Origin: a virus
Length of the DNA: 42,644 nucleotides
Virus record (IMG/VR): IMGVR_UViG_3300029586_000007
Location: 1-42,644 of that record
Strand: one strand, 5' to 3'
Shown here in pieces: positions 3,041 through 42,644 of this stretch. The translations under genes were made by a program, and so were the position numbers. The notes under the pieces are model-generated. The model had not been told where the DNA came from. It ran no database searches and saw only the letters and a list, made by a program, of their open reading frames with translations. Numbering within the stretch: the stretch's first letter is position 1; every line of letters begins with the position of its first letter.

Positions 3041-3311
3041 CCTGCAGGTATTCCAGCTCACCGCTGAGTGGTGCAAAGCACTGCGGGAACGTGTTGCCGT
3101 AGATATCTTTCAGCAGCACAAACCGCCATCCCATGCGATCTACGGTCTTAACCTGCTGTGTCGGCAGCTTTGCCATCTTCTCGCAGCGCTGCTCCAGTTC
3201 GTCCAGTGTGCATACATCCTCTGGTCGAAAGTCCAGTCCGTCCTTCTTGTGTGGTGCAAACCGCATCACCCGTGCCATGTCAATCGCCGAGCCGTTAATT
3301 TTTACTACCAT
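3036..3311 (-). CDS. Hypothetical protein
   Basis: 91-aa ORF with GGAGGACAAGC before the ATG. Confidence 0.7.
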   Translation of the reverse strand: MVVKINGSAIDMARVMRFAPHKKDGLDFRPEDVCTLDELEQRCEKMAKLPTQQVKTVDRMGWRFVLLKDIYGNTFPQCFAPLSGELEYLQE

Positions 3312-3450
3312 GCTTGTCCTCCGTTCTCATGCTGATCGTCTTTGCGCTCTCGCGCATATGCAGGCCGTACTTAGCGGCGTTCATTGCCTTGCCGATAACC
3401 CGGCGCTGCATGTCTTTGACTTTCAGCGTCTTGCGTCTTGCTTCCGTCAT
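3295..3450 (-). CDS. Small hypothetical protein (51 aa)
   Basis: ATG 3450 preceded by GGGGAG. Inner start of track ORF 3295..3513. Confidence 0.35.
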   Translation of the reverse strand: MTEARRKTLKVKDMQRRVIGKAMNAAKYGLHMRESAKTISMRTEDKHGSKN

Positions 3451-3466
3451 ATCCTGTTTTCTCCCC

Positions 3467-3676
3467 TCAGCGGTAACGACCGCGATAGTGTTTCTGCTGC
3501 TCGCATGCCGCAAGCAACAGGCTTGCCCTTGCGCTCACCATGCCGACAGTCAGCAGCGCCAGCATGATAGCGGCTCCGGAAAACAAGTCGATTCTTCCGT
3601 TCTCGGTCATGCCGCCGGAAACCAGCGTGCCGAGAAAGCACATTCCTGCTAACCATCCGTAGCGTTTGTAGGTCAT
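3467..3676 (-). CDS. Small membrane protein
   Basis: Two hydrophobic segments (WLAGMCFLGTLVSGG, AAIMLALLTVGMV). ATG 3676 with AAAGGGGA 9 nt upstream; the track begins at TTG 3685. Confidence 0.6.
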   Translation of the reverse strand: MTYKRYGWLAGMCFLGTLVSGGMTENGRIDLFSGAAIMLALLTVGMVSARASLLLAACEQQKHYRGRYR

Positions 3677-3705
3677 TGGTTTCAATCCCCTTTCGCGGTT
3701 TCTTG

Positions 3706-3830
3706 TAACACTCGAACGTAGTGAGAGTGTTATTCTTTTCTTTCTTTCTTAGAAAGTTAAATTAATATATATTCGACCGTAGGGAGAATATATATATACT
3801 TCTTTTCTTTCTTTGTTACTTTCTTTCTTA
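3706..3830. repeat. Twin hairpins with unrelated stems, conserved 11-nt loops and identical 15-nt pyrimidine tracts
   Basis: A: TAACACTC[GAACGTAGTGA]GAGTGTTA 3706..3732. B: ATATATATTC[GACCGTAGGGA]GAATATATAT 3765..3795. TTCTTTTCTTTCTTT occurs at 3733..3747 and 3800..3814. Confidence 0.8.
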
Positions 3831-3837
3831 CGCCTCG

Positions 3838-3925
3838 GTGTGTTGATGGTTTGTTATCGGTGTGTTATCGGTTTGTTGATTGTGTGTTATCTGTGTGTTG
3901 ATGGTCTGTTGTTGGAGTGTTACGC
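3838..3925. repeat. Eight tandem 11-bp iterons (GTNTGTTRWYG)
   Basis: GTGTGTTGATG GTTTGTTATCG GTGTGTTATCG GTTTGTTGATT GTGTGTTATCT GTGTGTTGATG GTCTGTTGTTG GAGTGTTACGC. The period is exactly 11 bp. Confidence 0.85.
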
Positions 3926-4141
3926 AGACGCTTCCGCCTGCACCAATCGGTTAGCCACATCGGCCACATGATAGCGACCGCCGGTTAAACGCGGAACACC
4001 ATCTAAATAACGCTGTACGGTACGATAACTAACGCCAAACCAGTCTTTTAACTGTTTTGTGGTAATATATTCGCACCCTGCGAACGTGCGCAAACGGCCT
4101 TCAACCGTGCGTCTGCGGTTGCTTAATTCTGTTGCTGTCAT
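3920..4141 (-). CDS. Small HTH DNA-binding protein (excisionase/MerR-like HTH_17 type)
   Basis: ITTKQLKDWFGVSYRTVQRYLDG helix-turn-helix. GGAGGG RBS. Flanked on both sides by the iterons. Confidence 0.8.
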   Translation of the reverse strand: MTATELSNRRRTVEGRLRTFAGCEYITTKQLKDWFGVSYRTVQRYLDGVPRLTGGRYHVADVANRLVQAEASA

Positions 4142-4162
4142 TCGTTCAACCCTCCGCTTTCT

Positions 4163-4207
4163 GTGTGTTATTGGTGTGTTGCTTAGTGTGTTGATGGTGT
4201 GCTATCG
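4163..4207. repeat. Four further 11-bp iterons upstream of the HTH gene
   Basis: GTGTGTTATTG GTGTGTTGCTT (a) GTGTGTTGATG GTGTGCTATCG. Confidence 0.75.
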
Positions 4208-4312
4208 CTCATCATCATTGTTGCCGCCACGCAGCATTGCACACACAATAAGCAGCGCCATTTCTACGCCCAGTGTTGCCAGCACTCCGGCAACGAACGG
4301 GTGAATATACAT
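4202..4312 (-). CDS. 36-aa hydrophobic peptide
   Basis: MYIHPFVAGVLATLGVEMALLIVCAMLRGGNNDDER. GGAGGTG lies 6 nt before the ATG. Below the ORF-track length cutoff. Confidence 0.45.
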   Translation of the reverse strand: MYIHPFVAGVLATLGVEMALLIVCAMLRGGNNDDER

Positions 4313-4327
4313 CGGTTTCACCTCCGC

Positions 4328-4357
4328 TTGTTCGCCCCTTCCCGACCGTGGTATAAT
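4328..4357 (+). promoter_or_regulatory. Plus-strand promoter with extended -10 (TGGTATAAT)
   Basis: TTGTTC 4328..4333, 18-nt spacer, TGGTATAAT 4349..4357, directly upstream of 4380..4610. Confidence 0.6.
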
Positions 4358-4379
4358 AGCCGGGAAAGGAGGTGTTGAT

Positions 4380-4610
4380 ATGATGCACTTAGGTTCAGAG
4401 CTTCGCCGTATCGAGCAAGAAGCCGAATTGGAATTTCGTGAATCCATGTTGAAGCAGCTTGAAGATGAACGCCAGCAACGCGAAAAATCTGACGTAGAAG
4501 AACGCCGATTCGCGCTGAAATGGAATCGCATCAACCTTGCTGTTGCGATTTTCGCCGCGTTAGTCGGAACGGCCGGTCTTGTTCTCTCTCTTGTGTCTAT
4601 CCTCTCGTAA
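4380..4610 (+). CDS. Small C-tail-anchored membrane protein (charged helix plus one TM)
   Basis: AAAGGAGGTG RBS. Glu/Arg-rich N-terminal region, then NLAVAIFAALVGTAGLVLSLVSILS. Opposite in orientation to the surrounding operon. Confidence 0.75.
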   Translation: MMHLGSELRRIEQEAELEFRESMLKQLEDERQQREKSDVEERRFALKWNRINLAVAIFAALVGTAGLVLSLVSILS

Positions 4611-4694
4611 CAATGCGATCCGATAGACGATACTGCAACAACTCCAACCCAGTGCAAAACTGGATAGGCAAAGCGCTATAACTTTCAGCGCCAT
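4560..4694 (-). CDS. 44-aa hydrophobic/charged peptide (uncertain)
   Basis: MALKVIALCLSSFALGWSCCSIVYRIALLREDRHKRENKTGRSD. GGAGGTG lies 8 nt upstream. It overlaps the 3' end of 4380..4610 convergently. Confidence 0.3.
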   Translation of the reverse strand: MALKVIALCLSSFALGWSCCSIVYRIALLREDRHKRENKTGRSD

Positions 4695-4711
4695 GTCCTT
4701 CTCACCTCCGC

Positions 4712-4951
4712 TTATGCGCTCTCGTTGTCATTCTCCACGCCGAATGCCCCGTTGGTAATTTCATCGTCCGTGGCAAACAGGTAAGTGAACGGCTTCTTGA
4801 AATAGCGGCACAGTAGCTTGCATTCTTTCGGCGTAAACCGTCCGCTTTTCATTTTGGATTCATAGGCATTTCTGCTGATACCTAAGATATTACCCATATC
4901 ATCAGATGTCAGACCGTGAAACGCTTTCATGCCCATCAAATTCGGATACAT
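4712..4951 (-). CDS. Cro-like XRE-family HTH regulator
   Basis: LTSDDMGNILGISRNAYESKMKSGR HTH. Divergent from the CI-like gene. GGGAGGTG RBS. Confidence 0.85.
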   Translation of the reverse strand: MYPNLMGMKAFHGLTSDDMGNILGISRNAYESKMKSGRFTPKECKLLCRYFKKPFTYLFATDDEITNGAFGVENDNESA

Positions 4952-4974
4952 ATTTGCACCTCCCTTCTCATTTG

Positions 4975-5076
4975 TTGGCGCTCCGCCAACCTGTGATTAC
5001 AGTTTATCAGCAATGCGCCAACTTGTCAAGGGATTTTTCAAAAAATGTTGACAGAACGCCAACTTAGTGTTATGCT
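4975..5076. promoter_or_regulatory. Lysis-lysogeny switch: back-to-back promoters and repeated operators
   Basis: Minus: TTGACA (rc of 5024..5029)-17-TAAACT (rc of 5001..5006). Plus: TTGACA 5048..5053-17-TATGCT 5071..5076. CGCCAACYT at 4984, 5016 and 5057. Palindrome TTGGCGctcCGCCAA 4975..4989. Confidence 0.7.
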
Positions 5077-5097
5077 GTACTCATAGGAGGTGAGCAC

Positions 5098-5478
5098 ATG
5101 GAATTCTACGAAGAACTGAAAGCTGCTCGCATTAAGGCCGGTTTAACCCAGCAGCAAATAGCCGACGAAATAGGCATTACAAAGAGTACCTATTGTGGAT
5201 ACGAAACTGCAAAGCGAAACCCTGACCCGCAGAGAATCAAACAGCTTGCAAAGGTTCTTCACATCTCTGCCGATACCTTGTTAGATACCGGCATAGAAAA
5301 AGAAAAAGCCCCTGCCCCGGCCAAAGCCGAAACAGGGGAAATCACAAGAGAGATGTCTATTGAGTTGTTAAAGGCTCTCGGATTGCTCGACCAGTCCGGC
5401 AACCTTTCCGACGATGATCTCGCGTTTCTTGCGCACATCGTCGGATTGCTCGAATGGCGTTTCGGCGATCATTCGTAG
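5098..5478 (+). CDS. CI-like XRE-family repressor
   Basis: LTQQQIADEIGITKSTYCGYETAKRNP HTH with a C-terminal extension. AGGAGGTG RBS. Same strand as the integrase. Confidence 0.85.
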   Translation: MEFYEELKAARIKAGLTQQQIADEIGITKSTYCGYETAKRNPDPQRIKQLAKVLHISADTLLDTGIEKEKAPAPAKAETGEITREMSIELLKALGLLDQSGNLSDDDLAFLAHIVGLLEWRFGDHS

Positions 5479-5619
5479 CGCATTGTATATGCGCAGCGGG
5501 TTTGTGCATGAATTGAGCATTGCGGTAAAACGGTCGATGTTGTCCATGATGTTTGGTTCCTGCCTTTCCTGTTGTATACTCCTATGATATTACCTTAAAA
5601 TGGAAATATCAATAAGAAC

Positions 5620-5654
5620 CGTTCGCCTTTATCTGACATATAGTATAGCGAACG
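5620..5654. terminator. Possible bidirectional terminator between convergent genes
   Basis: CGTTCGC 5620..5626 pairs with GCGAACG 5648..5654. T-rich on both sides. The 21-nt loop is long, so this is a weak call. Confidence 0.4.
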
Positions 5655-5712
5655 TTTGTTCGATTTTCAAGAGGACGCGAACAGCCTTGTTGAAAAGTCC
5701 AATAAACAGGAC

Positions 5713-5982
5713 TTATTGCTTCTCTGGAGAGATTCCAGCCTCGCGCAGTTTCTTCGTCAAGAACTGCGCGACGGCTTTCGAAAGGTCACTAAAACCGGCT
5801 GCATCAAAGCCGACAAAGTATCCGTTGTTCTCTGCATTGGTCAAAGCTGTTTCAGCAAGGCGGATAGCCTTGCCTCGCTGGTGCTTAGTAAGCGGCAACG
5901 TGTTGATATAGTGATATAGGGCTTCAACGCTCTTGATCGTCGTTTCATCGCGTTTGACGCAAAGTCCGTTTCCGTATTCCAT
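5713..5982 (-). CDS. Hypothetical protein
   Basis: 89-aa ORF immediately downstream of the antirepressor gene. Confidence 0.7.
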   Translation of the reverse strand: MEYGNGLCVKRDETTIKSVEALYHYINTLPLTKHQRGKAIRLAETALTNAENNGYFVGFDAAGFSDLSKAVAQFLTKKLREAGISPEKQ

Positions 5983-5988
5983 CGGTGA

Positions 5989-6714
5989 TTAGCTCCTTTC
6001 GCCCAGCAGTTTTGAAATGAAATACTGCTGACCCTTGCCGGTTACTTTCGGCGTTTTGTTTACGCTGATATGGCCGTCTGCATGGGTGACGCTGGTTTCC
6101 TTGACCTCAAACAAGCCTAACTCCATGCTTCGCTGTGTCGGCATATTGTAATCGGTGCCCTGACGGCGTACAAGATAGCCGTTCTCACGCATCCACGCAA
6201 ACAGGCGCTTGCCGCCCATGTCAACGCCGTTCTGCTTGATGATCTTTGCAAGATCGAAAATTAGAATAGAAGTCTTGGCCGTGGCTACGCTGTCCGCGAA
6301 AAGAACCTTGGGTGCGTCTTGCTCGATCTTCTCCGAAAGCGTGTGGATTCGCTTGTTGGCAATCTGCAAGGCGCGTGCCATTACCTTTTCCGGGCTGTTC
6401 CAGTCGCGTTCAAGCTGTAAGAAATACTGGCGTGCCTGCTTGCCCTTGTCGTTGCGCTGGAGCATGCAAAGCTCCTTTGCCATATCAATAGTAATAGCAG
6501 CGTCGTCTACAGTACGTCGTACTTCACGGTTTCCCTCGTATTGAAGGCGGTCAAATTTGACCGGGTTGAAATCACGCCCTTGCTCAAAACCGTATTCACA
6601 CATACGAGGAAACCAATGGCGAAAATCTGCGCCGACTTCGAGAAAGTCGTGCATCTCGCGGGCGGATACGGTTGGTTGTTCGTTATCGTAGTTTACAGTA
6701 ATGATTTCGTTCAT
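5989..6714 (-). CDS. Phage antirepressor (AntA/KilAC-type)
   Basis: N-terminal SAREMHDFLEV..DFRHWF and C-terminal LFADSVA...ILI.DLAK....GV.MG..RLF.WMR..GYL blocks are typical of Ant/KilAC antirepressors. Confidence 0.85.
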   Translation of the reverse strand: MNEIITVNYDNEQPTVSAREMHDFLEVGADFRHWFPRMCEYGFEQGRDFNPVKFDRLQYEGNREVRRTVDDAAITIDMAKELCMLQRNDKGKQARQYFLQLERDWNSPEKVMARALQIANKRIHTLSEKIEQDAPKVLFADSVATAKTSILIFDLAKIIKQNGVDMGGKRLFAWMRENGYLVRRQGTDYNMPTQRSMELGLFEVKETSVTHADGHISVNKTPKVTGKGQQYFISKLLGERS

Positions 6715-7803: not shown

Positions 7804-8982
7804 ATGCCACGTCGAAAAAAAGACCCTCGCGGCTTTGTCCGTGAGACCGGAACGTATATGGGAAAGCACTACGACCTGAGAGCAAAAACCGAAAAGGAAC
7901 TCAACGAGAAAATCAGGGCAAAACGCGCAGAGATCGAATCCGGAAGTAAACTCATTGAAGCCGGTGTTACCGTAAAGGAATGGGGAAAACGCTGGGTAGA
8001 AACCTACAAGTCCGGCGTGAAGGAATCCACGCGCAGGCTGATTGAGGGACGGCTTGTGAACTACGTCTATCCCTACATTGGGGATATCCCCGTTAGCAAA
8101 GTGCGGCCGCTGAACTGTCAGGAAGCGCTTAACTCTGCGGAAGGACGTGCGCCGGACACCGTAAAGAAGGTGCAGCAGGCAATCGAGCAGATGTTCCGTG
8201 CAGCCAAGCAGAACGGCTTGTGCGTCAATAATCCTGCGGAAGATTTGAAGATGCCCCGTACTGGCAAGCAGAAGAGCCACAGGAGCATTACAGATCGAGA
8301 ACGTGTTATTTTACTGGAAACTGCAAAGACGCATCCTGCGGGAACGTGGGTGCTTACTCTGCTGTATAGTGGCTTGCGTCCGGCGGAAAGCCTTGTGCTG
8401 ACATACGCCGATATTACAGGCGGTATGATTACTGTTGACAAGGCATACGACCGGGACACCCGCGCCGAGAAATACCCCAAGTCAGACGCAGGCGTTCGCA
8501 AAATCCCGATTATCCCCCAGCTTGCCGCAGTCCTGCCGAAAGACGGTTCGTTCGGTGAATTGGTTTTTCCGCGTAACGGGCACTTGTACGATGATAAGTC
8601 CATGCGTGCCATGTGGCAGGGTTTCCGCGCCGCTATGGATGATACCGAGCGCGAGTTGATCGCGGCGGGGAAAATTTCACCCATTGCCGAGCAGCTGCCT
8701 CCTATCGTTCCCTACGATCTGCGCCACACGTTCTGCACAGATTTAGAGCGTGCGGGCGTACCGCTCAACGTCGCAAGCAAACTCATGGGACACGCATCTA
8801 TCGAGATCACCGCCAAGATTTACACGCACACCGGCGAGGATATGATCGAACGTGCAGGCGAGCAATTAGCCGCCTTGCTCAGTCCCACATTTAGTCCCAT
8901 TAACGAAGTGCAAAAAACGCCTATGGCTGACATTATGCGAGAGCTGCAAGAACTTCGTGCAGCAGTGCTCAAAGCCGTATAA
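7804..8982 (+). CDS. int: Tyrosine integrase
   Basis: C-terminal catalytic block LRHTFCTDLERAGVPLNVASKLMGHASIEITAKIYTH. AGGAGG RBS. Adjacent to the att core. Confidence 0.95.
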   Translation: MPRRKKDPRGFVRETGTYMGKHYDLRAKTEKELNEKIRAKRAEIESGSKLIEAGVTVKEWGKRWVETYKSGVKESTRRLIEGRLVNYVYPYIGDIPVSKVRPLNCQEALNSAEGRAPDTVKKVQQAIEQMFRAAKQNGLCVNNPAEDLKMPRTGKQKSHRSITDRERVILLETAKTHPAGTWVLTLLYSGLRPAESLVLTYADITGGMITVDKAYDRDTRAEKYPKSDAGVRKIPIIPQLAAVLPKDGSFGELVFPRNGHLYDDKSMRAMWQGFRAAMDDTERELIAAGKISPIAEQLPPIVPYDLRHTFCTDLERAGVPLNVASKLMGHASIEITAKIYTHTGEDMIERAGEQLAALLSPTFSPINEVQKTPMADIMRELQELRAAVLKAV

Positions 8983-8993
8983 AATAACAAAAA

Positions 8994-9035
8994 AAGCCTT
9001 GTTTCAATGGATTTACCAAAGAAACAAGGCTTTTT
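8994..9035. terminator. Bidirectional intrinsic terminator after int
   Basis: AAGCCTTGTTTC 8994..9005 pairs with GAAACAAGGCTT 9021..9032. An A-run precedes it and a T-run follows. Confidence 0.65.
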
Positions 9036-29661: not shown

Positions 29662-29784
29662 TTAGGTCGAAGACGAGCGAGCGCCACGAGCGCCAGCCGC
29701 ACGACGGCCAACCGCTACACTGCGGCGACGAGCGCGGCCGGAACGGCCACGGTTTGCCAGTCTACCACTGCCATAACCACCCAT
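29662..29784 (-). CDS. 40-aa Arg/Gly-rich mini-ORF (uncertain)
   Basis: Hand translation MGGYGSGRLANRGRSGRARRRSVAVGRRAAGARGARSSST. GGAGGTG lies 6 nt upstream. Bracketed by two terminators. Confidence 0.4.
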   Translation of the reverse strand: MGGYGSGRLANRGRSGRARRRSVAVGRRAAGARGARSSST

Positions 29785-40259: not shown

Positions 40260-41078
40260 TCACACCACACCTTCCAATCCAATCTGTACCGTTTCCGGCT
40301 CTTTCAGCATCTTCTCCACCGCATCGCGGTAAAACTCCTTGCAGATTTCAAAACCGTAGCTATCGCGCCCCAGCTCCCGTGCTGCTCTGAGTGTTGAACC
40401 GCTTCCGGCGCATGGGTCAATCACCACATCGCCCTGGTCTGTGAAAATCTCAATCAGCTTTTTCAGCAGCTTCACCGGCTTCTGTGTCGGGTGCAGCTTT
40501 GGTACTTCTCTACCGTCGCGTTCCCAGTCGATATGGTCAAACACCATCTTTCCGCTTCCGCGAACGACCTTGCCGTTCTCGTCATACCGCCTGCCGTTGT
40601 TGAACTTCGGCAGCTTGTCCCGGTACAGTACAACCGCAAACTCAGTTGCGCCTACAATCCGCATATTAGCTTTAAGCACCTGTGCCGAATACGGCTTCGT
40701 GAAAAACAGCGGATAGCTGTTCTTGAACCCGTACCGTCTGCCGTACTCCATTACCGTCTGCATCTGGTCGAACGCGCAGAATACGATCATCGCCGGTGCA
40801 GCGTTGCGTTCCTTTGGCTCTTTCTTCAAAAGCCGGTTGCAGAAGTGCATATATTCCGCGATCTTGAAATAACCATCCGTGCGGAAAAAGCTGCTTTTCG
40901 CCTTTGCACTTTCTCCGTTCTTGTTGTCGCCGCCGACATACCACATTGGATTGCTTCCGTATGCGTCCGCGCCAATGTTATACGGAATATCCGCAATCAC
41001 CAACTGTGCTTTCGGAATCCCGTAACGCTTGTAGTTCTGGAAATTATCGCAGAACAACTCACATTTAACCTGTTTCAT
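40260..41078 (-). CDS. N6-adenine/N4-cytosine DNA methyltransferase (beta class)
   Basis: ADIPYN (motif IV) precedes VIDPCAGSGSTLRAA (motif I). ATG 41078 with GGGAG upstream. Confidence 0.88.
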   Translation of the reverse strand: MKQVKCELFCDNFQNYKRYGIPKAQLVIADIPYNIGADAYGSNPMWYVGGDNKNGESAKAKSSFFRTDGYFKIAEYMHFCNRLLKKEPKERNAAPAMIVFCAFDQMQTVMEYGRRYGFKNSYPLFFTKPYSAQVLKANMRIVGATEFAVVLYRDKLPKFNNGRRYDENGKVVRGSGKMVFDHIDWERDGREVPKLHPTQKPVKLLKKLIEIFTDQGDVVIDPCAGSGSTLRAARELGRDSYGFEICKEFYRDAVEKMLKEPETVQIGLEGVV

Positions 41079-41442
41079 CTTCCGCTCCCAAAATCTCAAC
41101 CACAATCCTCGGATTCTTCGCATCCACATCAAAGTGATCTTCAAACCCTCGGATATTCTTCCAACCGTCGTTCGACAGATACCGTGCTTTCACCAACGCA
41201 TCCTGAATTACCTTCCTGCCGAACGCGCAGATATTGTCCTTGTCCCGTCGCCGGTCCTTTTCGTACCAGCGATAGATCATATACACCGGCTCCTCAAATT
41301 CCACGTTTCCGAGCTGTCTTGCCGCGTGCATCACAACGGTTTCGCACTTTTTCTTGAGCTGTGCGCCTAAGTACCGATTGCGCCGTTCCGCCTCGATCAG
41401 CTCATTCAATCCCGGCAATGGGCCTTTGATTACAAATTTCAT
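41065..41442 (-). CDS. rusA: RusA-family Holliday junction resolvase
   Basis: 125 aa. RRDKDNI...DALV.A..L.DD.W RusA-type acidic motifs. Confidence 0.88.
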   Translation of the reverse strand: MKFVIKGPLPGLNELIEAERRNRYLGAQLKKKCETVVMHAARQLGNVEFEEPVYMIYRWYEKDRRRDKDNICAFGRKVIQDALVKARYLSNDGWKNIRGFEDHFDVDAKNPRIVVEILGAEDETG

Positions 41443-42161
41443 CTTTCACCTCTGCTGGCTTTCACTCGTGCCGCCCACTCATTTTCCCAGTCACTGGCGG
41501 CGGGCGCACCGTTAAACATCGGCGCATCCGTTTTGGTTTTCTTCGTCTTGTCTCCGATTCTGTCCCAAATGATACCCCTCCACCTCTGTGACATACTCAG
41601 CCGGATAACATCGGCTACTGCCTGTTCGCCGTGCTGCTTTACGCGGTTCTCAATCATCGTGAGAAGGTTTCTGAGACTGGTTGGCTCGTATGCATCCCTG
41701 CGCTCCTTCTTGTATGTAATCCAATCTTGAACCGCCGAACATACCGGCTCCGAAAACCGTTCCGTCAGGTCGAGTTTCTTATCGGCTTCTTGGGCTTTGG
41801 GCTTCGGTTTAGGCTTCGGCGAACATTTTGCCGGTGTTGTCGCTTCGTCCGGCGTACTTTGGTACTCATCATACTTGCTGACGGTAATCACGGTGTAGTG
41901 CCGATTGGTTTCCACCGTGATTTCGCCGGTCTTTTTCAGTTTACCGAGCGCCGTCCGTACCTGCTGCACAGACAATCCACTTTCCGCCGAGAGCGCCGCA
42001 TAGCTTGTTGCGAACGCACCACGCGGTATTTCTATCCCCTGCCACTCACAAGCCCTGTAATTGGCCCTCAGCAGGACGTGAAGCCATAGCTTGCAGGTGG
42101 GGAGGTCTTTGTACCATCCCCACTCCGTAAGTGCACGGTGCAATTTAATGTGCCCGTTCAT
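41439..42161 (-). CDS. Replication initiator / replisome-organiser-like winged-helix protein
   Basis: N-terminal IKLHRALTEWGWYKD....LWLHVLLRAN...RG.F.TSY..L...SGLS..QVRTAL..L...GEI pattern. KPKPKPK linker. Lies next to ssb. Confidence 0.7.
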   Translation of the reverse strand: MNGHIKLHRALTEWGWYKDLPTCKLWLHVLLRANYRACEWQGIEIPRGAFATSYAALSAESGLSVQQVRTALGKLKKTGEITVETNRHYTVITVSKYDEYQSTPDEATTPAKCSPKPKPKPKAQEADKKLDLTERFSEPVCSAVQDWITYKKERRDAYEPTSLRNLLTMIENRVKQHGEQAVADVIRLSMSQRWRGIIWDRIGDKTKKTKTDAPMFNGAPAASDWENEWAARVKASRGER

Positions 42162-42177
42162 CGTCCCTCACCTTGTC

Positions 42178-42573
42178 TTAAAACGGCAGCTCGTCGAATT
42201 CTTCATCCGTTGAGATAAAATCGCTTTCTTCCTGCTTCTGTGGCTTTCCCTCGCTCTTGCCGCCGCAGAAGTCGATGCTTTCGCACTGCACTTCCCAAGA
42301 GCGGCGCTTATTGCCGTTCTTGTCCTGCCAGTCACGGCTTTCCAAACGGCCGGAAACAATGCACATATCGCCCTTGTGGAACCATGTGCTTGCGTGCTCT
42401 GCCAGCTTGCCCCACAGGACAACGGAACAGAAGTCGCTCTGATATTCTCCGTTGTTATCCTTTCTGCTGCGTTGTACCGCAATCGTACCGCTTGCTACAG
42501 CCGTATTAGACTGCGTGTGTCGCAATTCCAAATTATCTGTTAATCTTCCTTGTAAAACGATCTTGTTAAGCAC
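42178..42573 (-). CDS. ssb: Single-stranded DNA-binding protein
   Basis: OB-fold N-terminus MLNKIVLQGRLTDNLELR and acidic tail ending DELPF. Its first 52 nt recur at 1..52 because of the terminal overlap. Confidence 0.93.
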   Translation of the reverse strand: MLNKIVLQGRLTDNLELRHTQSNTAVASGTIAVQRSRKDNNGEYQSDFCSVVLWGKLAEHASTWFHKGDMCIVSGRLESRDWQDKNGNKRRSWEVQCESIDFCGGKSEGKPQKQEESDFISTDEEFDELPF

Positions 42574-42644
42574 TTGTATTCCTCCGTTTGTTGCATTTTT
42601 TCAATCCATTATGCAATTTCGCATGTTCTGATCGGGTCAGAACC
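42522..42644. repeat. Terminal duplication, copy 2 (identical to 1..123)
   Basis: It carries the ssb start and the 3' end of the HNH gene a second time. Confidence 0.97.

Follow-up and report, generated by a model that had tools for sequence, protein, structure and literature searches.

Iteron origins provided with an AT-rich tract and ssi signals tipped by mini-hairpins are both textbook elements of DNA replication, so that the assignment of an element of this kind to a phage origin is, in itself, ordinary. The oriV of RSF1010 combines iterons, an AT-rich tract and two hairpins, and in phage lambda a palindrome lies just beyond the AT-rich tract. The lambda origin itself maps to the middle of gene O and comprises iterons with an AT-rich tract, DnaB loading taking place there (PMC3349717, PMC7466680). 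A sequence rule for mini-hairpin DNA, GCGNAGC / GCGNNAGC, has been reported, with melting temperatures of 70-76 C for only three pairs (Kimoto & Hirao 2026, PMC13037366). Mini-hairpins of this type occur at the primase start sites of G4 (GCGAAAGC), St-1/alpha3 (GCGTTAGC) and RSF1010 ssiA (CCGAAGG), and are bound poorly by SSB (PMC13037366).

Here we analyse a pair of hairpins found in the window, i.e. the whole 42,644-nucleotide stretch of viral DNA under study, whose loops share a structured motif that we refer to as the cap. As in ori-lambda, tandem iterons directly precede a short AT-rich tract that is rich in purines on the strand sense to the initiator, and early transcription crosses the site; in addition, at least six unrelated phages bearing the cap hairpin carry all of these elements midway along the initiator gene, arranged as in lambda. 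Unlike ori-lambda, the putative origin of the window is intergenic, being positioned 4.2 kb upstream of the gene for a DnaD-like replisome organizer and not within an O gene, and its iterons are 11-bp direct repeats instead of the 18-19-bp inverted-repeat sites of lambda. To our knowledge, the lambda sequence contains no GA-N-C-GNA-G-N'-GA cap.

With the ssi signals of G4, St-1/alpha3 and RSF1010 the locus shares a stable single-stranded DNA hairpin ending in a GNA/GNNA mini-hairpin tip; the window hairpins show a strict strand orientation and a presumed single-stranded tail 3' of each hairpin. Differently from RSF1010, in which ssiA and ssiB face opposite ways, both window caps are on one strand, and the tandem GA/GA shell found here around the mini-hairpin sets them apart from the ssi signals described so far. 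This likeness rests on sequence, and no phage-encoded primase is recognisable in this phage, whereas the published ssi signals have primase starts.

Genome context and layout of the locus

PHROG/Pfam annotation depicts the 42.6-kb window as a whole temperate siphovirus-like genome, in which minus-strand genes predominate. A promoter scan revealed divergent promoter-like sites at 5001-5076, between the cro-like gene and the cI-like repressor, while the lysis, tail and head genes, the portal and TerL follow the integrase and reach 29278. The leftward early operon proceeds from cro across the hairpin site to an exonuclease, NinB/Orf and an HNH gene and, on the circular map, continues to the DnaD-like replisome organizer, RusA and a methyltransferase. 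The transcript from the leftward promoter-like site thus traverses the origin region, with the hairpins about 1.2 kb downstream of it, and the initiator gene lies a further 4.2 kb downstream of the hairpins in the same operon. The N-terminal 100 aa of the product of this last gene match annotated replisome organizers. GC skew over the genome locates no origin and is uninformative on this point, since it tracks gene orientation. Table 1 collects the coordinates of all the features considered.

Table 1. Features of the hairpin locus and of the early and replication regions of the window
Feature	Position	Strand	Description or basis
Hairpin A, TAACACTC[GAACGTAGTGA]GAGTGTTA	3706..3732	+	8-bp perfect stem
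Pyrimidine tail / unwinding-region repeat 1, TTCTTTTCTTTCTTTCTTA	3733..3751	+	directly 3' of hairpin A; repeat family D3
Hairpin B, ATATATATTC[GACCGTAGGGA]GAATATATAT	3765..3795	+	10-bp perfect AT-rich stem; inverted repeat I7
Pyrimidine tail repeats 2 and 3	3800..3830 (3800-3818, 3812-3830)	+	repeat family D3
Iteron array I	3835..3922	+	8 direct copies GTGTGTTRWYG, exact 11-bp phasing; repeats D1/D2
73-aa helix-turn-helix (HTH) protein gene	3920..4141	-	between both iteron arrays
Iteron array II	4160..4204	+	4 further copies of the array I iteron at spacings of 11, 12 and 11; D1/D2 extra copies at 4160, 4183
cro-like gene	4712-4951	-	
Early leftward promoter-like site, TTGACA-17-TAAACT	5001..5029	-	upstream of cro-like gene; promoter scan, gene map
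cI-like repressor	5098-5478	+	
Ant	5989-6714		
Integrase	7804-8982		
RusA	41065-41442		
Replisome organizer / DnaD-like initiator, presumed iteron binder	41439..42161	-	phrog_2514/186/678

The coordinates and sequences of the two hairpins, as well as the tail positions, had been given in a first, sequence-only reading of this DNA, and proved exact on re-reading the window. Moving 5' to 3' along the plus strand, two hairpin-tail units (tails of 15-19 nt) are encountered, the second immediately followed by a third tail copy, and then eight iterons, the HTH gene and four further iterons. The 15-mer TTCTTTTCTTTCTTT common to the tails maps to 3733-3747 and 3800-3814; a repeat search extends it to a family of three 19-nt copies, with one C per 3-4 nt. 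The GC content drops to 0.33 across 3700-3899, compared to about 0.5 in the flanks, making this the most AT-rich stretch of the region, and the segment 3800..3830 is presumed to form, together with 3733-3764, an AT-rich, strand-asymmetric unwinding element. The final copy of iteron array I runs into the HTH gene's stop codon. A scan for repeats over 40800-42644 and 1-1200, which takes in the initiator gene and its surroundings, detected no other iteron arrays.

Perfect inverted repeats of at least 8 bp with loops of 3-15 nt are more numerous in the window than in Markov shuffles (18 vs 7.1), so that one such hairpin alone would be unremarkable. Two hairpins located 59 nt apart and sharing homologous loops and tails are remarkable as a sequence pattern, for which the comparative data presented below are decisive. 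The window contains just these two adjacent copies, further loop-like matches occurring at chance level.

The T-rich tract that follows each hairpin on the plus strand would suit tandem intrinsic terminators blocking antisense transcription into the early operon, an alternative already put forward from the sequence, and the region folds as RNA better than its shuffles (z = -2.7). However, the hairpins were not called by a terminator scan, their stems are AT-rich and broken by a structured loop, the tail is interrupted by a C every 3-4 nt, and upstream of them both a plus-strand gene and a convincing promoter are absent. Moreover, the T-rich tail is not conserved elsewhere: instead of a T-rich stretch, the 3' flank of other families displays phage-specific repeats (TCTGCT, AACTTAA, TATTGCT, GGCTCATTTTGAGC), and in at least six families the element falls inside ORFs. 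We consequently set the terminator hypothesis aside as extremely improbable.

The structured loop and the strand to which it belongs

The loop reads 5'-GA / N-C-GTA-G-N' / GA-3', that is, a GTA triloop with C-G closure, one further pair, and tandem G.A/A.G mismatches beside the stem. Specifically, the hairpin A loop, GAACGTAGTGA, shows the tandem G.A/A.G mismatches, then A-T and C-G pairs, and the GTA triloop (a C-GNA-G mini-hairpin), and the hairpin B loop, GACCGTAGGGA, presents the same cap with C-G as inner pair. Since position 3 of the loop pairs with position 9 (A-T for hairpin A, C-G for hairpin B), both differences between the two loops are compensatory. The conservation of the 11-nt loop, as initially described, is thus borne out, whereas its picture as an unstructured 11-mer has to be revised. 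The inner loop pairs are present in the RNA fold of the region too.

When positions 3 and 9 were left free in an IMG/VR scan, they were found to be Watson-Crick in 20 of the 23 matches listed, against 25% expected by chance (C-G 11, G-C 8, T-A 1, non-pairs 3). Covariation of the same pair was also observed inside homologous origins (L042 vs L297; L088/L123 vs L308). Among the phage caps listed, the tip varies only among GTA, GTTA (in L039/L040 and the L043 group) and GGTA (in L381, L382 and L393), with GAA occurring too in REP-like genomic copies; all these variants begin with G, end with A and are closed by C-G. The resulting caps (CGTAG for both window hairpins, CGTTAG or CGGTAG for those of relatives) correspond exactly to the published GNA/GNNA mini-hairpin classes.

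Tandem G.A pairs obey rules that are part of known nucleic-acid chemistry. On the complementary strand, the features of the cap turn into T...C loops and T.C mismatches, for which we know of no stability; on this basis, and relying on the mini-hairpin and G.A rules, we infer that the selected fold is that of the plus-strand DNA, antisense to the early transcript. Nearest-neighbour DNA folding could not distinguish between the two strands, as the model is devoid of mini-hairpin and G.A terms. The orientation of the cap is nearly invariant: it is on the plus strand in 65/66 copies of hairpin A and in 66/66 copies of hairpin B, and the sole exception, hairpin A of L022, has its 11-nt loop precisely inverted, an outcome expected from a template switch across a folded palindrome. 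Together, the strand bias and the compensatory loop changes show what appears to be selection in vivo on a folded single strand.

The sequence-only reading had preferred a boxA-boxB-like nut site, in which a polypurine tract followed by a hairpin on the leftward transcript would be bound by an Arg-rich peptide. Such binding would render RNA polymerase termination-resistant. Like a lambda nut site, the hairpins do lie in an early operon downstream of an early promoter, at about 1.2 kb; in most families the genes next to or around the hairpin oppose the G-rich cap strand, so that the complementary loop is transcribed; and Arg-rich small ORFs are present at 916-1107 and 29662-29784. Nevertheless, the G-N(N)-A cap, the C-G closure and the GA/GA flanks all describe the antisense strand, while the transcript carries U.C mismatches and a UAC loop, of no stability known to us. 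The transcript loop is, in addition, an 11-nt UCACUACGUUC (11-12 nt in general, with conservation referring to the antisense strand) and not a boxB pentaloop. No boxA (YGCTCTTWA-like, up to 1 mismatch) was detected within 3152-5927, its window-wide count being below chance expectation; Rfam searches at permissive thresholds with the window region and eight genomic loci retrieved nothing relevant; and no N-like family, hence no N-like partner, emerged among the early genes scanned. Unlike lambda nut, the hairpin is also found within initiator coding sequences and in lytic phages, T4-like ones among them, and the orientation exceptions L117, L147 and L022 are difficult to accommodate in such an RNA. 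Being on the wrong strand, with the wrong loop size, lacking a boxA and recurring inside initiator ORFs, the element has only a negligible likelihood of being a nut site.

The minus-strand loop looks somewhat like the site nicked by RepB of pMV158, which we take to be TACTACG/AC. This lead was rejected, as no rolling-circle Rep is present among the neighbouring genes annotated, of which those identified are replication genes of the theta type.

Conservation in related and unrelated phages

Among 41 IMG/VR loci sharing the HTH gene (35 distinct), the hairpin A stem occurs only as ACACTC/GAGTGT or ACCCTC/GAGGGT, with no discordant combination. The loops of these loci are unchanged, the length of the tail varies in steps of 4 nt (TTTC) and that of the iteron array in steps of 11 bp; over 66 loci the loops are unvarying. 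A broader IMG/VR scan was carried out with the loop core, specifying only two closing pairs; its counts are lower bounds, and the independence of the families is approximate. Most of the matches listed carry long perfect stems of unrelated sequence. In 50 distinct contexts among those listed, the first five stem positions left open in the scan show Watson-Crick pairing of 0.64, 0.60, 0.46, 0.56 and 0.38, with a drop to about 0.2 past the fifth; all four pair types are represented at each position. For the 66 distinct viral loop-core sequences listed, the proposed structure is 73.8% paired, compared to 60.3 +/- 1.3 after shuffling, and the covariation score reaches 0.36, compared to 0.14 in shuffles (0/500) and 0.12-0.14 with slid partners. 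Loops that remain fixed while stems covary in related phages are what the first reading had anticipated, and its argument that a fixed loop over free, always-paired stems denotes a selected hairpin is supported by both the stem covariation and the shuffle test.

As far as the iterons are concerned, relatives possess one of two types, GTGTGTTAT (type A) or GTCTGCCCT (type B). The presumed recognition helix of the initiator follows this distinction, GLSVQQVR accompanying type A iterons and GLT[VL]KQVR type B; the match holds in all 13 loci, and again in all of about 45 loci fetched independently via the initiator. From this covariation we infer that the replisome organizer encoded at 41439-42161 binds the iterons. 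One or more hairpins were present in all of the about 45 initiator-fetched relatives having at least about 4.3 kb of upstream sequence, at 3.3-6.2 kb upstream of the initiator, and the hairpin-tail unit is found in one or two copies per origin (L374, L375). Three loci (L381, L382 and L393) join a window-type hairpin B with its tails, and a variant hairpin A, to type B iterons, the junction falling exactly at CGCCTCGG. Since in these loci the hairpin unit has recombined with the other iteron type, whatever reads the hairpin would not be the iteron-specific determinant.

The HTH gene, which adjoins the iterons in every case, also comes in two types, independent of the two iteron types. The 73-aa HTH protein was therefore rejected as iteron or hairpin binder, as it assorts independently of both.

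These data bear on the hypothesis that an extruded cruciform or hairpin is the site for a non-replisome phage protein (the 73-aa HTH, RusA or recombination proteins), acting in early-gene regulation or in the start of recombination-dependent replication. RusA, NinB/Orf and exonuclease are encoded in the same operon, the HTH gene abuts the iterons throughout, and in the window the hairpin A stem resembles an inverted iteron core, GAGTGTTA(C) (repeats I2/D8). However, in most relatives the hairpin A stem is GAGGGTTA, which is not iteron-like, the HTH type tracks neither the hairpin nor the iteron type, and the strict strand bias of the cap favours a single-strand fold over a symmetric four-way junction. 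In addition, an all-vs-all BLASTP comparison of the surrounding ORFs found no protein common to the neighbourhoods of unrelated hairpin families, which argues against a dedicated phage-encoded ligand. We regard a site of this kind as improbable.

The same cap is carried on unrelated stems by many unrelated IMG/VR phages. Direct repeats, different from phage to phage, accompany its 3' side in 22 of the 25 stem families listed, the mean number of repeated 7-mers being 15.6 on the 3' side of the cap vs 2.5 on the 5' side, and the hairpin-tract-iterons polarity is kept in 22/25 of these families. Across families, the 3' flank is enriched in AT and in pyrimidines. In at least six families the hairpin lies inside a replication-initiator ORF; the cap is always on the antisense strand of this ORF, and the iterons precede the hairpin when the gene is read from its start. 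Specifically, in L042 the gene is a Pfam Phage_rep_O member (E = 2.5e-27) with a DnaC/IstB-like loader gene after it, and in L300, L296, L123, L095 and L143 the hairpin is found in PHROG replication-initiation genes (E = 3e-40 to 2e-15) which have primase/helicase genes as neighbours. The hairpin of L131/L094 maps between DnaG-type primase and Pol III alpha/SSB-like genes, and that of L118 just upstream of a T4 gp61-like primase; some other cap hairpins, such as those upstream of terminase genes in L075 and L146, are remote from recognisable replication genes. The cap is not universal at phage origins. It is absent from Burkholderia phiE131, Stenotrophomonas SOVA965, Klebsiella Kp4865-4 and an Stx1 phage, all of which have homologous initiators, and it is therefore not required by that initiator family. 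Among INPHARED phages no DNA match was obtained for the window region, and DNA searches with the L042 origin and with the TTTATC family returned nothing beyond one weak unannotated match. The trinucleotides TTA and CTA, which are the initiation preferences of Firmicute DnaG, show in the tails a placement that is inconsistent between origin types.

The cap is shared, moreover, with cellular genomes, where it constitutes the core of a dispersed repeat, GTC-ATTTC-GAACGTAGTGA-GAAAT-CTC, often arranged in inverted pairs and found in Bacteroidota, Chloroflexota, Clostridia and archaea. The phage hairpins resemble REP/REPIN elements in being short palindromes with a conserved core, and the identical cap in bacterial and archaeal repeats, frequently as inverted doublets, raises the hypothesis of a selfish or neutral REP-like hairpin which, being nucleated by the cap, would readily arise or spread and accumulate in unwound AT-rich DNA with no role in replication. 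Compatible with this are the variable copy number of the hairpin-tail unit and the approximately 65-bp direct duplication that flanks one of the copies (L252). Unlike REP/REPIN, however, the phage hairpins have long, perfect and lineage-specific stems devoid of the conserved REP flanks, are confined to a single locus with 1-2 copies per phage genome, and occupy a fixed position and polarity relative to the iterons in unrelated origins. The element is also kept in all the relatives sampled, with compensatory changes and a 65:1 orientation bias, and we consider a selfish or neutral element markedly unlikely.

A replication-origin reading of the hairpins

All together, the comparisons show what behaves as a DNA hairpin under selection, specific to one strand and topped by a structured cap. 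Its position and polarity are fixed with respect to the neighbouring iterons, which in turn covary with the initiator. The site has two features of an origin, namely a tandem iteron array covarying with the phage's own initiator, which would bind it, and an adjacent AT-rich, strand-asymmetric tract; it lacks a third, as it lies 4.2 kb from the initiator gene and neither within nor next to it. That the hairpins are part of the replication origin is, in our opinion, quite likely. The possibility of DNA hairpins or cruciforms within an origin, beside an AT-rich core and iterons, had been the second alternative of the first reading, and it is the one favoured by the iteron layout, by the covariation with the initiator and by the initiator-gene locations in other phages. 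We also think it fairly probable, as an estimate for the reading as a whole, that the hairpins act in this origin at the DNA level; they would hold the unwound region open and mark the entry of the primosome.

In such a composite mechanism, the replisome organizer (41439-42161) would bind the helically phased iterons, as the covariation suggests, and iteron binding together with early leftward transcription would, by analogy with ori-lambda, melt the adjacent AT-rich tract with its pyrimidine/purine asymmetry. The palindromes would then fold on the pyrimidine-rich plus strand, with nucleation by the stable cap, C-GNA-G or C-GNNA-G on tandem G.A, a step consistent with both the covariation and the published mini-hairpin rule. 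Once folded, the hairpins may keep the region open and resist SSB coating, and the 3' pyrimidine tail would stay single-stranded, offering the host helicase-primase a defined place to enter or start. The hairpins would at that point operate as ssi signals, by analogy with the G4/St-1 complementary-strand origins and with RSF1010 ssiA/ssiB. This specific ssi-like role is put forward tentatively; the features that speak for it are the hairpin tipped by a C-G-closed GNA/GNNA mini-hairpin and its strand-specific orientation.

A more general reading, which we find rather doubtful, would see in the cap GA-N-C-G-N(N)-A-G-N'-GA a near-universal DNA signal which, on lineage-specific stems, would mark the unwinding/priming sites of dsDNA-phage origins. 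It would take into account the occurrence of the cap in at least six initiator families, with hosts belonging to several phyla, and as core of REP-like repeats. This spread would be ascribed to a conserved replisome component (primase, helicase loader or SSB, for instance) that recognises or spares the cap. The presence of the cap in dispersed cellular REP-like repeats implies that it may instead be a general hairpin-nucleating motif and not an origin-specific signal.

Full-text literature searches for the loop and REP-like strings retrieved primers and unrelated matches only, and keyword searches concerning the origins of phages yielded no account of the motif; these results, together with the lack of an Rfam family, indicate that the cap is apparently undescribed. 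Two aspects appear to be new: the recurrence of the extended cap GA-N-C-GN(N)A-G-N'-GA at dsDNA-phage origins as an element specific to one strand, in at least six initiator families, and a cap common to phage origins and cellular REP-like repeats. Origins are unmapped in almost all uncultivated phages, for which a short, searchable, iteron-adjacent motif, frequently located within initiator genes, would be a practical marker; were the cap indeed near-universal, it could predict their origins. The cap hairpin would also provide a defined substrate for helicase/primase entry at a phage origin, and the long-debated role of origin hairpins and cruciforms becomes directly testable.

The exact 73-aa HTH protein was retrieved from thousands of human-gut metagenome assemblies, on contigs of up to 428 kb, which identifies the phage as a common gut prophage; a likely origin and a likely initiator can thus be assigned to an abundant prophage family of the human gut.

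Variation of hairpin A and recombinant forms of the probable origin

Among 66 copies of hairpin A, a single one, carried by the related phage L022, was found to have its 11-nt loop exactly inverted (TCACTACGTTC) while the stems are unchanged, the outcome expected of template switching across a palindrome in its folded state. Three relatives of the region 3700-3925 (L381, L382 and L393) are recombinant origins. Specifically, their hairpin B and pyrimidine tails are the same as those of the window, hairpin A is present as the variant ACTAACCC-GAACGGTAGTGA-GGGTTAGT with a GGTA cap, the cap being the structured loop at the hairpin tip, and the junction to the other iteron type (GTCTGCCCT) maps to CGCCTCGG. 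In the window, the last iteron unit, GAGTGTTAC, recurs in inverted orientation as the hairpin A stem, GTAACACTC. This iteron-like stem is a minority allele, most relatives carrying GAGGGTTA.

Promoter-like sites, small ORFs and other repeats

Hairpin B contains a weak match to a sigma-70-like promoter (TCGACC-16-TATACT, 9/12), which is directed rightward, toward the pyrimidine tails and the iterons. In addition, at 4330-4610, a strong extended -10 promoter, TGGTATAAT, is predicted to drive a 76-aa ORF, which also shows a strong Shine-Dalgarno sequence and is opposite in orientation to the leftward early region enclosing it.

Features of the window and their positions
Feature	Position	Strand or direction	Remark
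Hairpin A	3706-3732	+
Hairpin A stem, iteron-like	3705-3717
Last iteron unit	3911-3923
Promoter match in hairpin B	3773-3800	+
Extended -10 promoter	~4349
76-aa ORF	4380-4610	rightward
36-aa membrane-like ORF	4204-4314	-	between iteron array II and the 76-aa ORF
Inverted repeat	8991-9035		perfect, 15 bp, 15-nt loop

The inverted repeat (AAAAAGCCTTGTTTC...GAAACAAGGCTTTTT) lies directly 3' of the integrase gene and may represent either a terminator or a portion of attP. About 25 related contigs (among L314-L391) terminate 3.5-4 kb from the initiator gene, on its upstream side, within a 27-bp tandem coding repeat, (GGCGGCGCTCCAGTTGCCCGTGTTTGT)n, that is absent from the window; this is presumably an assembly breakpoint.

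Cap hairpins in or near replication genes of other phages

In L042, L123 and L143, whose initiators belong to three different families, the hairpin enclosed in the initiator ORF is translated in the same frame, giving the peptide (P/S)LTTFE within an inter-domain linker. In the L095 initiator ORF the hairpin falls in another frame. The peptide is probably a by-product of conserved DNA. In L053, L094 and L131, a second hairpin, ATTGCGAAGCAAT, which includes the classic GCGAAGC mini-hairpin, precedes the cap hairpin on its 5' side at a distance of about 30 nt, and the pair is located in a primase/Pol III alpha module.

The cap in cellular genomes

In cellular contigs (genome_contigs matches L162-L281; for example L195, L208, L247, L258, L177 and L204), a dispersed REP/REPIN-like repeat has the cap loop at its core; its consensus is (t)GTC-AT[TC][TC]C-GA-N-CG[TA]AG-N'-GA-G[AG][AG]AT-CTC, and its variants include GAGCGTAGCGA, GACCGTAGGGA and GAGCGAAGCGA. 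An inverted second copy is often found 10-100 nt away. The repeat is present in Bacteroidota, Chloroflexota, Clostridia, Myxococcota, CPR bacteria and archaea, and no matching family was found in Rfam.

In the genome_contigs match L252, a cap hairpin with a 10-bp stem sits between the copies of a ~65-bp direct duplication of a gene 3' end. In Halorubrum (L190), a cap hairpin with a 7-bp stem lies immediately 3' of a tRNA gene and is followed by repeated, att-like fragments of the tRNA 3' end.
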